Origin: a virus
Lineage: Duplodnaviria > Caudoviricetes
Direction: 5' to 3' (one strand)
DNA length: 49,120 bases
Virus record (IMG/VR): IMGVR_UViG_3300012940_000034
Location: 1 to 49,120 of that record
Made by a program: the position numbers and the translations under genes. Position 1 is the first letter of the stretch, and every line of letters starts with the position of its first letter. Below the pieces are notes generated by a model. It ran no database searches. It was not told the origin of the DNA and saw only the letters and a list, made by a program, of their open reading frames with translations. Below are positions 4,010-37,852 of the stretch, one piece after another.

Positions 4010-4080
4010 ATGTCCTTGATGTAACGGTAGCATGACAGGCTCCAACCCTGTTTGTGTGGGTTCAAATCCTACAGGACATG
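4010..4080 (+). tRNA. tRNA-Trp(CCA)
   Basis: Acceptor ATGTCCT/AGGACAT, anticodon arm ACAGG-CT CCA AC-CCTGT, T-loop TTCAAAT. Confidence 0.9.
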
Positions 4081-4081
4081 C

Positions 4082-4152
4082 GGTCCTATCGTCTAACGGT
4101 TAGGATACCAGCTTCTCACGCTGGTGGTCAGGGTTCGATTCCTGTGGTATCG
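4082..4152 (+). tRNA. tRNA-Glu(CTC), degenerate (possible pseudo-tRNA)
   Basis: Anticodon arm CCAGC-TT CTC AC-GCTGG is intact; T-arm is 1 nt short and the acceptor stem has a mismatch plus G-U pairs. Confidence 0.65.
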
Positions 4153-4160
4153 ACGTTTAA

Positions 4161-4233
4161 CTACGCGTAACTCAGTTGGTAGAGTACCTGTCTTACAAAC
4201 AGGCGGCCGGAGGTTCGAGCCCTCCCGCGTGGA
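4161..4233 (+). tRNA. tRNA-Val(TAC)
   Basis: CTACGCG/CGCGTGG acceptor, CCTGT-CT TAC AA-ACAGG, GGTTCGAGCCC T-arm. Confidence 0.93.
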
Positions 4234-4234
4234 C

Positions 4235-5809: not shown

Positions 5810-5885
5810 CGGATTGTAGCTCAGCTTGGTTTAGAGCGCTGCATTTGGGATGCAGAGGCCGCAGGTTCGAATCCTGCCTGTCCGA
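5810..5885 (+). tRNA. tRNA-Pro(TGG)
   Basis: CTGCA-TT TGG GA-TGCAG anticodon arm, GCAGG TTCGAAT CCTGC T-arm. Confidence 0.93.
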
Positions 5886-5901
5886 CTTAACGAAACGAGC
5901 T

Positions 5902-23871: not shown

Positions 23872-23900
23872 AGAGTAGCACATGGAAAAACCCCACGCAA
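23872..23900 (-). promoter_or_regulatory. sigma70-type promoter
   Basis: TTGCGT-17-TACTCT with extended TG. Confidence 0.55.
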
Positions 23901-23930
23901 CCCTCTCGCTGAGAGTTACATGGGGTTCTT
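23886..23930 (-). terminator. terminator of tRNA operon
   Basis: Minus-strand AACCCCATGTAACTCTC...GAGGGTTGCGTGGGGTTTTT; G-U pairs only work on the minus strand. Confidence 0.75.
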
Positions 23931-23931
23931 G

Positions 23932-24003
23932 AGCCCCTACGACGACTCGAACGCCGTACTCCTGTTTACAAGACAGGTGCTTTACCGGTTAAGCTATAAG
24001 GGC
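23932..24003 (-). tRNA. tRNA-Thr(TGT)
   Basis: GCCCTTA/TAGGGGC, CCTGT-CT TGT AA-ACAGG, TTCGAGT. Confidence 0.9.
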
Positions 24004-24006
24004 ATG

Positions 24007-24210
24007 TGCCCTCTTGATTTAGCTTCCGCTCGCTGCGACGTTCCCTAGGCTATCGCATCTTACAGTTGCAGCTCAGCGGGCTACTGAGCAAATGTGTCAA
24101 GCACGACACTCCGTGCGTTACATGTTTGTGACCTAAGACATGTTGACACCTCTGAGTGACACTCTTAGTCTTAAGTCACAAGGTCCTAACGACTGCCACA
24201 CGAAAGGACA
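24007..24210 (-). ncRNA. unclassified ~204-nt structured RNA candidate
   Basis: Closing stem TGTCCTTT/AGAGGGCA, 14-bp stem TTGTGACTTAAGAC/GTCTTAGGTCACAA, further hairpins; no ORF of 60 aa or more; inside the tRNA operon. Confidence 0.6.
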
Positions 24211-24279
24211 GAGCGCATGTCGAGCAAGGACGCATGATCAGGTTTGCAGCCTGACGCCTATCCATTCGGCCAATCGCCT
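24209..24279 (-). pseudogene. tRNA-Cys(GCA)-like with aberrant T-arm and acceptor
   Basis: Canonical D arm and TCAGG-CT GCA AA-CCTGA; T-loop is CTTGCTC and the acceptor is poorly paired. Confidence 0.65.
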
Positions 24280-24325
24280 GTAGCTACCTTACCCTAGTCC
24301 TCGGTGAGGTAGCTCCACTTTGTTG

Positions 24326-24410
24326 CGGAAACGGTGTGAGTCGAACACACTCCCCCGTGAGAGGGGCCTTGCCTTAGCAGGGCAGCGCCTTACCGTTCGG
24401 CCACGCTTCC
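24326..24410 (-). tRNA. tRNA-Ser(GCT)
   Basis: GGAAGCG/CGTTTCC, loop CT GCT AA, long variable arm, TTCGACT. Confidence 0.9.
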
Positions 24411-24425
24411 TCAATGTATCCCATG

Positions 24426-24506
24426 CCGAGGTTAAAGGAATCGAACCCTTAGGCGTTGCCTAGCGACGCTTTTCGAGAGCGCTTGTCCCCATGGACGCTA
24501 ACCTCG
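24426..24506 (-). tRNA. tRNA-Ser(CGA), atypical D arm
   Basis: CGAGGTT/AACCTCG, GCGCT-CT CGA AA-AGCGT, variable arm; D arm GTCC-ATGG-GGAC. Confidence 0.75.
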
Positions 24507-24549
24507 TCAGCCACAGGCGCTTCAGTGAGAGGCATCCTGTGGTCTTGTG

Positions 24550-24620
24550 CTCCTCACCAAGGTATTGAACCCCGTCCTTCTGGTCCAGAGCCAGACGTGC
24601 TGCCTTCACACCCGTGAGGA
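24550..24620 (-). tRNA. tRNA-Gln(CTG)
   Basis: TCCTCAC/GTGAGGA, TCTGG-CT CTG GA-CCAGA. Confidence 0.85.
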
Positions 24621-24625
24621 TTAAG

Positions 24626-24700
24626 TCTCCCCTGCAAGATTCGAACTTGCGGCCTCCTGGTTCGTAGCCAGACGCTCTATCCAGGCTGAGCTAAGAGGAG
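24626..24700 (-). tRNA. tRNA-Arg(ACG)
   Basis: TCTGG-CT ACG AA-CCAGG, GCAAG TTCGAAT CTTGC. Confidence 0.92.
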
Positions 24701-24701
24701 A

Positions 24702-25046
24702 TCATAGACGCGTGTAAGTCCGTGCTGCATGGCAATTCGCGCACACGATCTCGCACTTGGCAATTTCTAGTTTTAGAGTATCTAGAGAAACACCTTGCGA
24801 TGCAAGCGTAGACACATTGTCGCTTTTATCGGCTGCATTCAGATGGTCGAATTGCATAACATAGTGTGGATATTGTACCCCACAATCGACACAAGGTGTT
24901 GACGATTTTAGGTCTGCAACATACTTACGGTTTTTTATCCTGCGCCGCCTAATAAAGTCTATAGAATACTGTATTGCTTGTTGCCGCGTGCGCTGATAGT
25001 AAGCCCGTCTATATTGTTTTTGATCTTCTGGATTTTTATATGGCAC
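24702..25046 (-). CDS. HNH endonuclease within the tRNA array
   Basis: PCVDCG...MQFDH...KCEIVCANCH; start set at GTG25046 because the upstream ORF portion is tRNA. Confidence 0.85.
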   Translation of the reverse strand: MPYKNPEDQKQYRRAYYQRTRQQAIQYSIDFIRRRRIKNRKYVADLKSSTPCVDCGVQYPHYVMQFDHLNAADKSDNVSTLASQGVSLDTLKLEIAKCEIVCANCHAARTYTRL

Positions 25047-25047
25047 G

Positions 25048-25119
25048 TGAGGTATGCGAGTCTCGAACTCGCCCAGCCTGCTTGGAAGGCAGGAATGCCG
25101 CCAACAACATCTATACCCC
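25048..25119 (-). tRNA. tRNA-Gly(TCC)
   Basis: GGGGTAT/ATACCTC, CCTGC-CT TCC AA-GCAGG. Confidence 0.85.
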
Positions 25120-25124
25120 AAGAG

Positions 25125-25207
25125 TTGCAGTGAAGGGAATCGAACCCCCATGCTCCTAAGAGAACGGAACTACAATCCGCTGAACCCACCACCTGTTCAA
25201 CACTGCA
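25125..25207 (-). tRNA. tRNA-Tyr(GTA)
   Basis: TGCAGTG/CACTGCA, GCGGA-TT GTA GT-TCCGT, variable arm. Confidence 0.85.
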
Positions 25208-25212
25208 ATGCG

Positions 25213-25284
25213 CCTCGCCACTAGGGATCGAACCTAGGCGTCTCGGGCTTCAACCGAGTGCTCTACCGACTGAGCTACAGCGAG
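25213..25284 (-). tRNA. tRNA-Phe(GAA)
   Basis: CTCGG-TT GAA GC-CCGAG, CTAGG TTCGATC CCTAG. Confidence 0.9.
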
Positions 25285-25289
25285 TTAAG

Positions 25290-25362
25290 TAGTCCGTGCG
25301 GGGTTCGAACCCGCGTTCTCCTGAGTGAAAGTCAGGCGAGATCACCGCTACTCCAACGGACC
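25290..25362 (-). tRNA. tRNA-Glu(TTC)
   Basis: GGTCCGT/ACGGACT, CCTGA-CT TTC AC-TCAGG. Confidence 0.92.
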
Positions 25363-25367
25363 ATACG

Positions 25368-25440
25368 TACTCCCGCAGGGATTCGAACCCTGACTAACAC
25401 GCTTTTGAAACGTGTGCCTCTGCCGTTGGGCTACGAGAGC
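25368..25440 (-). tRNA. tRNA-Leu(CAA), short variable loop
   Basis: CACGT-TT CAA AA-GCGTG, CAGGG TTCGAAT CCCTG. Confidence 0.88.
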
Positions 25441-25543
25441 AAGCACTAGTTTATCACGCCGACATGGCAGTGTCACGTGAACTCACCAGCGGGAACCTGC
25501 CAGTTCCTGAACACTCGAAAGCCTTAGGAGCTGACGGTGTTTT
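25441..25543 (-). ncRNA. unclassified ~100-nt putative pseudoknotted RNA
   Basis: GGAAC-TGGCAG-GTTCC hairpin whose loop complements downstream CTGCCA; extra hairpins; lies between tRNA-Asp and tRNA-Leu. Confidence 0.4.
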
Positions 25544-25544
25544 G

Positions 25545-25617
25545 CCAGGCGTACGGGAGTTGCACCCGCACCCACCATCTTGACAGGATGGGACTCTACT
25601 AATTAAGCTAACGCCCG
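25545..25617 (-). tRNA. tRNA-Asp(GTC), atypical T- and D-loops
   Basis: CGGGCGT/ACGCCTG, CCATC-CT GTC AA-GATGG; T-loop TGCAACT, D-loop lacks GG. Confidence 0.8.
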
Positions 25618-25664
25618 TTACTGCCTCCCGCCACCAGCTACTTAGGTATCTACGAGAGACATTG

Positions 25665-25736
25665 TGGACCTACACGGATTCGAACCGTGCCTATCTGCGT
25701 GCAAAGCAGACGTGCTTCCGCTAACACTATAAGCCC
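25665..25736 (-). tRNA. tRNA-Ala(TGC)
   Basis: G3:U70 identity pair present; TCTGC-TT TGC AC-GCAGA. Confidence 0.92.
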
Positions 25737-25742
25737 ATAGCG

Positions 25743-25815
25743 TAGACCTGGAGGGATTCGAACCCACACTGACATGCTCCTAAGGCATGTGCCTCTGCCA
25801 TTGGGCTACAGGTCC
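25743..25815 (-). tRNA. tRNA-Leu(TAG), short variable loop
   Basis: CATGC-CT TAG GA-GCATG, TTCGAAT. Confidence 0.88.
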
Positions 25816-25865: not shown

Positions 25866-25895
25866 ATTATACTCTAAACTTCGGGCTCGTGTCAA
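25866..25895 (-). promoter_or_regulatory. consensus promoter of tRNA operon
   Basis: TTGACA-18-TATAAT. Confidence 0.85.
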
Positions 25896-36936: not shown

Positions 36937-37212
36937 ATGACAAAGTGGGATGTTAAGGTTCGGCGAACCGAAGTAATTCTTCTTAACGACGAAGTTATTT
37001 CTAGGGAAGATTTACGAAAGCTACGCGACGATATTAACGAAGTTTTGGCGGCGGAAGCTGTTCATCCCAGGACGATTTTTGACGCCTATGGGGATGAGTG
37101 GACGCGGGACGACAGCGGTGATACTGATGTAGCTATGTATGTGTGTGACGGCGAATATTGTTCTCGCGACGAGATTGAGCGCGTATACGGGATCGCTAAT
37201 GAGCGATACTAA
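36937..37212 (+). CDS. hypothetical protein
   Basis: GGAAGG RBS; DAYGDEW motif. Confidence 0.6.
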   Translation: MTKWDVKVRRTEVILLNDEVISREDLRKLRDDINEVLAAEAVHPRTIFDAYGDEWTRDDSGDTDVAMYVCDGEYCSRDEIERVYGIANERY

Positions 37213-37852
37213 GAGCATCTTACTTAGTGGCATTGTAGGATCGGATGCGTACGGCCTGAGCACACCTGACAGTGACATTGATAGGCTAGGAGTGTTCGCG
37301 TACCCTACTGAATCACTTCTCAAGCTTCGAATTCCTCGTGACACAGTTGTGTCTCATGATCCTGATGTAGCGTTGCACGAGGCACGCAAATTCCTACTAC
37401 TATGTTTAAAGTGCAACCCCACGGTCACTGAGCTTCTCTGGTTAGAGGACTATGAAGTTCTAACGGGTGCGGGTGTTGAATTAGTGAGAATGCGCGGGGC
37501 ATTTCTTTCACAGGCGTACGTGCGCAATTCTTACCTTGGATATGCTTCGTCGCAATTTAAGCGGTTGATGGAGAAAGGCGATTGGAAGCGAGGGACAAAA
37601 CACGCCAGACATATGTTGCGTTTGCTTTCGCAAGGTATGTACTTGTGGACCACGGGTGAGTTGAAGTTGCGCGTCGAAGACCCTCAATGGTACTTTGACA
37701 CTGCCGAAAGCATCTACGCTAACCCTACTCTCGCCAAACAATACCTTCATCGAGCCGAACAAGTCTTCGATGAGACGCGCCCTGTCATCCCCACCCAACC
37801 TGATGAACTGAGAGTGCAGGATTGGTTGTTGTGGGTGCGTAGAATGTACTAG
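37199..37852 (+). CDS. Pol-beta-superfamily nucleotidyltransferase (RlaP/YcgL-like)
   Basis: VGSDAYGLSTPDSDIDRLG (GS...DxD), KCNPTVTELLW, KHARHMLRLL. Confidence 0.85.
   Translation: MSDTKSILLSGIVGSDAYGLSTPDSDIDRLGVFAYPTESLLKLRIPRDTVVSHDPDVALHEARKFLLLCLKCNPTVTELLWLEDYEVLTGAGVELVRMRGAFLSQAYVRNSYLGYASSQFKRLMEKGDWKRGTKHARHMLRLLSQGMYLWTTGELKLRVEDPQWYFDTAESIYANPTLAKQYLHRAEQVFDETRPVIPTQPDELRVQDWLLWVRRMY

Follow-up and report, generated by a model that had tools for sequence, protein, structure and literature searches.

On balance, we read the 204 bases at positions 24007–24210 as a patchwork in which the final 92 bases match a tRNA spacer of a sister lineage and rather probably encode a small, stable, pseudoknotted RNA, with a 3' end that would be made by host tRNA processing and a conserved loop that would bind a protein. 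The surrounding tRNA operon carries a broken tRNA-Cys gene and a hairpin with a 14-bp stem, and both natural versions of the 92-nt module are able to form the same helices (Table 1).

Table 1 Features of the tRNA operon around the 204-nt stretch and related elements of the phage group
Feature	Position	Strand	Remark
Consensus promoter (TTGACA and TATAAT, 18 nt apart), preceding the first minus-strand tRNA	25866–25895	-	Putative promoter role
tRNA-Ser(GCT)	24325–24410	-	Its 3' end is the nearest tRNA boundary 5' of the 204-nt stretch
Separate spacer hairpin, 8-bp stem AGCTACCT/AGGTAGCT	24282–24314	-	z -3.31 for 24280–24324
Broken tRNA-Cys: 5' acceptor strand, D arm, GCA anticodon arm, no canonical T arm	24233–24279	-	Own tRNA model
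Tail pairing back onto the 5'-most 24 nt of the tRNA-Cys remnant (predicted)	24187–24215	-	Duplex -27.7 kcal/mol
56-nt hairpin, 14-bp stem with one G-U	24126–24181	-	Only thermodynamically firm part
Small hairpin GCACG/CGTGC	24101–24116	-	Probability 0.57–0.78
Conserved 92-nt module, with the Arg-to-Gln spacer as its homologue in L099 and L256	24004–24095	-	3' end flush with the next tRNA
Hairpin H1, GCTCAGT/GCTGAGC (GTGCGGT/ACCGCGC in L099, L256)	24071–24089	-	
H1 loop bases, predicted pseudoknot 5' strand	24081–24078	-	GCCC
Hairpin H3 with invariant stretch AGCCTAGGGAAC (24051–24040), including palindrome CCTAGG	24032–24059	-	
Invariant A-rich linker AAATCAAG	24013–24020	-	19 nt past the loop motif in both lineages
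Predicted pseudoknot 3' strand, GGGC (GTCGAC in L099, L256)	24008–24011	-	
tRNA-Thr(TGT), final tRNA of the cluster	23931–24003	-	
Terminator-like hairpin and T run, after the last tRNA	23886–23930	-	Seen in sequence and alignment
Second spacer family, copies	L084:11065–11150, L085:9451–9526, L094:8622–8708, L099:10676–10761, L256:3197–3271		
tRNA-Leu-side element	L001:4437–4694, L089, L090, L091, L260:1151–1362 (-)		

Setting and fold of the 204-nt stretch

The window, that is, the whole 49,120-nt stretch of DNA analyzed, is the record of a 49-kb siphovirus-type phage and is about 95% complete. Its closest cultured matches are actinophages, with protein identities below 45%, which points to an actinobacterium as the likely host. 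Thirteen tRNA genes are found on the minus strand (23931–25815), and the 204-nt stretch is part of the 321 nt that separate tRNA-Ser(GCT) from tRNA-Thr. The consensus promoter is the likely start of the operon transcript, and the order of promoter, tRNA genes and terminator-like hairpin, the last of which is missing from the consensus scan output, suggests that the cluster and the stretch are co-transcribed. ARAGORN listed neither a tRNA-Cys nor a tRNA-Lys in the record. A free-standing HNH endonuclease gene (24702–25046, minus strand) lies between tRNA-Gly and tRNA-Arg, as in the tRNA region of T5. Four further tRNA genes occur among the head genes, past the portal gene (4010–4234 and 5810–5886, plus strand), and this tRNA-rich phage also encodes an RlaP-type nucleotidyltransferase (37139–37852, plus strand; Pfam PF10127, RNA repair). 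Four more spacers of the operon fold well (25441–25543, 25618–25663, 24507–24548 and 24280–24324, minus strand; z -3.0 to -3.7), and that at 25618–25663 resembles a tRNA-Leu acceptor minihelix. Structured spacers are common in the phage group as a whole, z being -2 or lower in 17 of 45 short ones, 3 of which belong to the window.

The initial annotation had described the stretch as one multibranch RNA of 204 nt. All of the stems it listed can be drawn at their minus-strand positions and, in line with its claim for frames of 60 aa or more, no ORF of at least 50 aa overlaps 24007–24210. The preference that it saw for the tRNA-sense strand is borne out in part. The minus strand folds better than its shuffled versions (z -2.74, 1/200 as low), but the plus strand also beats shuffles (z -2.23, 5/200 as low), so the strand bias is only modest; 6 of the 132 genome windows of equal length that were scored fold as well as the 204 nt. 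The 14-bp stem (24181–24168/24139–24126) forms with a probability of 0.98, and such a stem arose in 0/200 shuffles. When this hairpin was kept and the rest shuffled, the whole multibranch fold lost its excess (z -0.72, 72/300): the folding signal of the 204 nt comes from one 56-nt hairpin. The other proposed helices fared less well. The nested TAGC-CCGCT/AGCGG-GCTA domain has pairing probabilities of 0.011 and 0.015, against 0.98 for the rival GCTCAGT/GCTGAGC hairpin, and enforcing the annotated helices costs about 10 kcal/mol. The terminal stem TGTCCTTT/AGAGGGCA reaches 0.84 when the stretch is folded alone and falls to 0.05, 0.00 and 0.00 when it is placed in three longer pieces of the transcript, and there is no tRNA end at position 24210. 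For the proposed GTGTCAA/TTGACAC pseudoknot, a perfect 7-bp complement occurred by chance in 121/200 shuffles, while the GCACG/CGTGC hairpin is drawable, with moderate support.

RNase III cleaves helices of a turn or more, which the length of the 14-bp stem fits, and the 56-nt hairpin is possibly a cutting site of this type according to its predicted fold. No homologue of this hairpin was found. Homologues of the full 204 nt, whose collection had been proposed as a check, were likewise not found by blastn in 50,697 phage records and 72,556 plasmid records, by blastn and nhmmer in 246 loci, or with a one-sequence covariance model in 14 sources. The initial annotation had not recognized the stretch as tmRNA, RNase P, SRP or 6S RNA, and this agrees with Rfam 15 (including tmRNA, RNase P, SRP, 6S, Y RNA, GOLLD, ROOL, ribozymes and introns), where no family matches at its gathering score and the search up to E 10 returned three chance matches only, far below gathering. 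Several other identities were rejected: a decayed protein gene (best E 0.26 in six-frame tblastn), another tRNA remnant within the 3' part (2 bits), a retron (none of the 50 scanned proteins was named as a reverse transcriptase), a MITE (no target duplication flanking the hairpin), a tmRNA (none by ARAGORN, also at a lowered threshold, and no T-loop motif in 23991–24330) and a group I intron in tRNA-Cys (no Rfam match, and no T arm with a matching acceptor strand anywhere in the window).

Upstream of the hairpin, our own model, built from 50 tRNAs of the phage group, detected a tRNA-Cys remnant (21.3 bits, E about 1e-6), which had been missed by ARAGORN, Rfam and the initial annotation and whose weak blastn matches are actinophage tRNA-Cys genes. 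The D arm and the anticodon arm are present in this unit; a T arm with a UUCRA loop and a 7-bp acceptor stem were not found in it. A forced cloverleaf has -15.5 kcal/mol, versus -35.4 kcal/mol for a rod of about 92 nt (24278–24187) that is predicted to be capped by the anticodon arm. The energy of the back-pairing duplex was matched by 12/2000 shuffled tails and that of its D-arm part alone by 40/2000, the whole-fold test of the rod being weaker (200/2000); among intact tRNAs tested for back-pairing, 7/8 show no such excess. The core helix of the rod has a probability of 0.81–0.86 in three longer contexts, where the annotated terminal stem has 0.00–0.05. Because the rod helix outcompetes that stem in context, the first 24 nt of the 204-nt element likely belong to another unit, the predicted Cys-derived rod. 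A contig piece from another study covers 24199–24349 with zero differences, so the odd tail of the tRNA-Cys is not an assembly slip. No RNA dataset was listed among the sequencing runs that contain the sequence, and the region 24004–24198 is covered by no independent sequencing run; two contigs of a possible source run overlap by 28 bases at 24095–24122, a junction that no single piece bridges.

Relatives and predicted fold of the 92-nt module

Protein-led and pattern scans yielded seven distinct relatives that span the slot (L003, L084, L085, L086, L098, L099 and L256). All seven carry an intact tRNA-Cys there, followed by 460–701 nt of gene-sized sequence and a tRNA-Lys ahead of tRNA-Thr, so the arrangement of the window is lineage-specific. 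L094 stops short of the slot, and five loci have a single tRNA there. The 92-nt module is absent from 5/7 of the syntenic relatives; in the other two, L099 and L256, its homologue alone fills the 92-nt spacer that separates tRNA-Arg from tRNA-Gln.

The first lead to this homologue was a weak blastn match (E 4.3) to the L099 spacer, and the second copy (L252/L256) came from a pattern scan. In a global alignment, 24095–24004 runs end to end with the L099 and L256 spacers with a single gap inside the alignment; the spacing of AGCCTAGGGAAC and AAATCAAG and their distance to the next tRNA are equal in both lineages. The last 58 nt, a length picked after the alignment was seen, contain 37/58 ungapped identities, a count reached by 1/1000 shuffles in free register against 23 kb of the relatives' clusters. 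Local alignment against 44 non-coding spacers gave 8/1000 shuffles as good with one scoring scheme; with two others L099 was not the top match. A first shuffle test was non-significant (34/500), and a one-sequence covariance model scores L099 at 6.7 bits (E 1.1). The L099 and L256 modules are identical at 90/92 bases, while their flanking tRNAs share 47/76 and 52/72 and two other spacers 53/86 and 32/84; this identity could reflect selection or recent exchange.

Wider searches left the family small. A profile of the three module sequences, run against 269 loci, added no member, the L099 spacer gave nothing beyond chance against phage records, and its copy of the module has no match in Rfam. 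Pattern scans of IMG/VR returned 6, 3 and 1 stretches: 2/6 are the L099/L256 lineage and the other 4 have no tRNA nearby; 2/3 are again that lineage and the third is L254; and the single stretch of the last scan equals the blastn match in Mycobacterium phage HC in length and position. In contig L254, a 6-bp hairpin lying 4 nt past a tRNA carries the loop CCTAGGGAA, with neither H1 nor the A-rich linker, and this single pattern match lends weak support. Two further protein-led scans gave no new relative with a tRNA cluster, and a genome scan led to L260. The 92-nt family was not found in the accessible parts of the literature searched. Six short module motifs are absent from the portion of the PMC10690425 supplements that was searched, and the family may be among the 10,006 candidates of that study.

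Both versions of the module share the conserved CCUAGGGAA loop and the AAAUCAAG linker, and both can form the same two helices. H1 has 7 bp and the same end point in the two lineages, with 7/7 pairs kept through two double and two single changes. The loop-tail helix, GCCC/GGGC in the window and GTCGAC/GTCGAC in the sister lineage, keeps 4/4 pairs with two double changes, and in either lineage its 3' strand ends 42 nt past the beginning of the loop motif. After shuffling of the 5' part, both helices were available in 90/20000 (window) and 16/20000 (L099) cases, with a helix register that was chosen after the match was seen; MAFFT put the 5' strand of H1 elsewhere. The module is thus predicted to adopt an H-type pseudoknot with a long third loop, which holds H3 and ends in the A-rich linker. 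A-rich linkers in such pseudoknots often dock in the first stem.

H1 has a probability of 0.90–0.98 in three of four longer contexts and of 0.38 in the 321-nt spacer. It drops to 0.01 when the window module is folded alone without pseudoknots, because tail pairing competes. The L099 helix CCAGG/CTTGG keeps only 2/5 pairs in the window, so this copy may be drifting. Compared with shuffles, the module shows no folding excess (z +0.3 for 24007–24125, +0.11 for L099 and -0.29 for L256), and the helix comparison covers two independent lineages.

Other elements were observed in the same phage group. A second uncatalogued spacer family has about 35 nearly invariant bases (ATAGTTGCC.GTAAAATCC..AGCATGAAC.GGAC) and was seen in 5 relatives, where it occupies three tRNA slots and shows one double-sided change in its stem; its L084 copy has no Rfam match, and in L099 the sequence on its 3' side is reminiscent of a fluoride-riboswitch core. 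Behind the single tRNA-Leu of one clade lies a conserved non-coding element of about 185 nt with 87% mean column identity and a long central hairpin. It has no Rfam match, and its homology to the 204-nt stretch was rejected, with model E no better than 0.19 and alignments within chance. Short spacer hairpins at L098:7102–7136 and L099:8954–8996 carry in their loops CTCTTAA, the anticodon loop of tRNA-Lys(CUU), and are possibly anticodon decoys or tRNA remnants. A tRNA with a CUA (amber) anticodon, a possible suppressor, is present at L099:8997–9072 and L256:1719–1794, in a slot where relatives have tRNA-Arg(CCU). Contigs L257 and L260 of the phage group were found inside a bacterial assembly (G003) labeled with the name of a Bacteroidota genus, likely as contamination of that assembly.

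Proposed mechanism and alternative explanations

We propose that the whole operon, between the promoter (25895) and the terminator (23886), is transcribed as a single RNA and that host RNase P, in cutting before tRNA-Thr, would create the 3' end of the module at 24004. In L099 and L256, processing of the flanking tRNAs at both ends would free a 92-nt RNA. In the window there is no tRNA boundary on the 5' side, so the module would remain part of a longer RNA, at most the 321 nt of the whole spacer, unless cleavage within or close to the 56-nt hairpin released it. With its 3' tail hidden in the pseudoknot, the RNA would be degraded more slowly by 3' exonucleases, and the CCUAGGGAA loop would offer a binding surface to an RNA-binding protein of host or phage, for which the RNA would act as a decoy or an adaptor. 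Protein binding through the loop is, in our view, the most likely function, as argued from the conserved unpaired bases alone. The initial proposal of a novel phage non-coding RNA in the tRNA operon is thereby likely retained, in agreement with the lack of an Rfam family; its size, 5' end and fold were likely wrong, because the conserved unit is the last 92 nt, with a different hairpin and pseudoknot.

The alternative that survives best, though we hold it to be unlikely, is that the stretch is non-functional debris of a rearrangement that broke tRNA-Cys and removed tRNA-Lys, with an inherited and decaying 92-nt piece, and that the sole working part is the 56-nt hairpin, which would serve as a signal in RNA processing or stability. 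The confinement of all folding signal to that hairpin agrees with this, as do a tRNA-Cys broken here and intact in 7/7 relatives, the loss of one L099 helix from the window copy and the absence of the module from most relatives. Decay sits poorly, however, with two motifs that are invariant in exact register and with four double-sided changes that preserve two helices.

A bolder proposal, to which we give little credence, makes the module the first-seen member of a new functional class of phage RNA, either a self-cleaving ribozyme or a ligand- or protein-binding pseudoknot, perhaps dimerizing via its CCUAGG loop, and one of several mobile RNA modules that are shuffled among tRNA spacers like cassettes. 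The narrower idea that the 92 nt are a new-class self-cleaving ribozyme helping to cut the tRNA transcript strikes us as improbable: no Rfam ribozyme matches even at E 10, and our own HDV-like and hammerhead descriptors found nothing in the window region or the L099 spacer. The compact predicted pseudoknot, the invariant unpaired bases and the contact with tRNA ends would suit such a role, and theta ribozymes provide, in the part of PMC10879173 consulted, a precedent for tRNA-linked ribozymes in phages; these cut at the tRNA 3' end, however, and the window copy has no tRNA on its 5' side.

A single 204-nt multibranch RNA closed by the terminal stem, into which the 92-nt module may have expanded in this lineage, is a poor candidate. 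The stem does reach 0.84 when folded alone, and RNA2H of T5 is a 172-nt multibranch RNA with a terminal stem, but transcript context reduces the pairing to 0.00–0.05, no tRNA end lies at 24210, the homologue pairs the same 3' strand inside the 92 nt and no full-length homologue was found. We regard as very improbable that the working part is instead the tRNA-Cys-derived rod (24278–24187), acting as a Y-RNA-like or anticodon-display decoy for Ro60/Rsr or an anticodon nuclease. Its back-pairing beats 1988/2000 shuffles, an excess that 7/8 intact tRNAs tested alike do not show, and it carries a GNCGAAN0-1G motif; that motif, though, is just the D arm and is also found in tRNA-Ser, the T arm that YrlA RNAs need according to the consulted part of PMC4201824 is missing, no TROVE domain was detected among 23 proteins searched against Pfam and no Ro-like name among 50 searched against PHROGs, and there is no second example. 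That part of the stretch is regulatory DNA, with an antisense promoter TTGACA-17-TAGTCT at 24143 (plus strand) and a palindrome beside TTGACA at 24100 (minus strand), is hardly credible: other intergenic sites of the phage do read TTGACA-17/18-TANNNT and 24127–24094 resembles the divergent-promoter region of Mycobacterium phage Babsiella (29/34), but that match has an E of about 1, 5/22 plus-strand TTGACA sites have TANNNT, several of them within genes, and the minus-strand TTGACA site has no -10 box.

For the favored small RNA, tests by cleavage, probing and pull-down are direct, given its two natural versions, the invariant bases of its loop and a specific fold prediction. The module would exemplify how such elements move between spacer slots in an uncultured, actinophage-related phage group, and how folding z-scores miss them; its value is limited by the tiny family (two lineages) and by the prediction of a small RNA from sequence.

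Comparison with known phage and bacterial RNAs

Bacterial Y RNAs (YrlA, YrlB and Yrn1), as far as the consulted part of PMC4201824 describes them, resemble the Cys-derived unit in that this unit is a tRNA-derived rod with GNCGAAN0-1G on its 5' strand; the motif lies at 24270 and is also present in the D arm of tRNA-Ser. They differ in that the unit has neither the T arm nor the acceptor-stem loop followed by the D arm, and the YrlA order of T arm, acceptor-stem loop and D arm was not found in it. No Ro60/Rsr gene was found within about 4 kb in this phage record, which is about 95% complete. Theta (minimal HDV-like) ribozymes are, like the predicted module, small pseudoknotted RNAs that touch phage tRNAs. 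In the accessible part of PMC10879173 they are described as requiring a nested double pseudoknot with a catalytic C in J4/2 and as cutting at a tRNA 3' end; our own descriptor and Rfam revealed no nested double pseudoknot (P3/L3, P1.1, catalytic C in J4/2) in the module.

The closest parallels are provided by T5 and T4. The T5 record (AY543070) annotates eight non-tRNA RNAs in the tRNA region (RNAI, RNAIII, RNAIV, RNA2H, RNAX and the tRNA-like RNA1–3), and T4 has two, at least in the part of PMC3014915 consulted, so the stretch, contrary to the initial suggestion, does not represent an undescribed kind of system. The T5 RNAs are also non-coding units, of about 70–170 nt (719 for RNAX), that lie between or flush with tRNA genes; their function is unknown, and some are tRNA-derived. 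They show no sequence likeness to the module (8/8 without a significant match; in the best case 13/200 shuffles score as high). The short ones are predicted to be closed by a terminal stem, unlike the loop-tail pseudoknot predicted here, and RNA1 and RNA2 keep the T arm that the Cys-derived unit has lost. The T5 RNAs are annotated as stable RNAs, whereas the module is known from its sequence alone. RNAC and RNAD of T4, small RNAs of unknown role transcribed from the phage tRNA region according to the consulted parts of PMC3014915 and PMC9697503, are likened to the module by description, not by sequence; they share with it the origin in a tRNA region and belong to a different phage group. The module is likewise non-coding and part of a phage tRNA cluster; it lies on the same strand as the tRNAs and, in L099 and L256, between two of them. 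It is likely a small RNA of no catalogued family and of the kind found in the tRNA clusters of T4 and T5.
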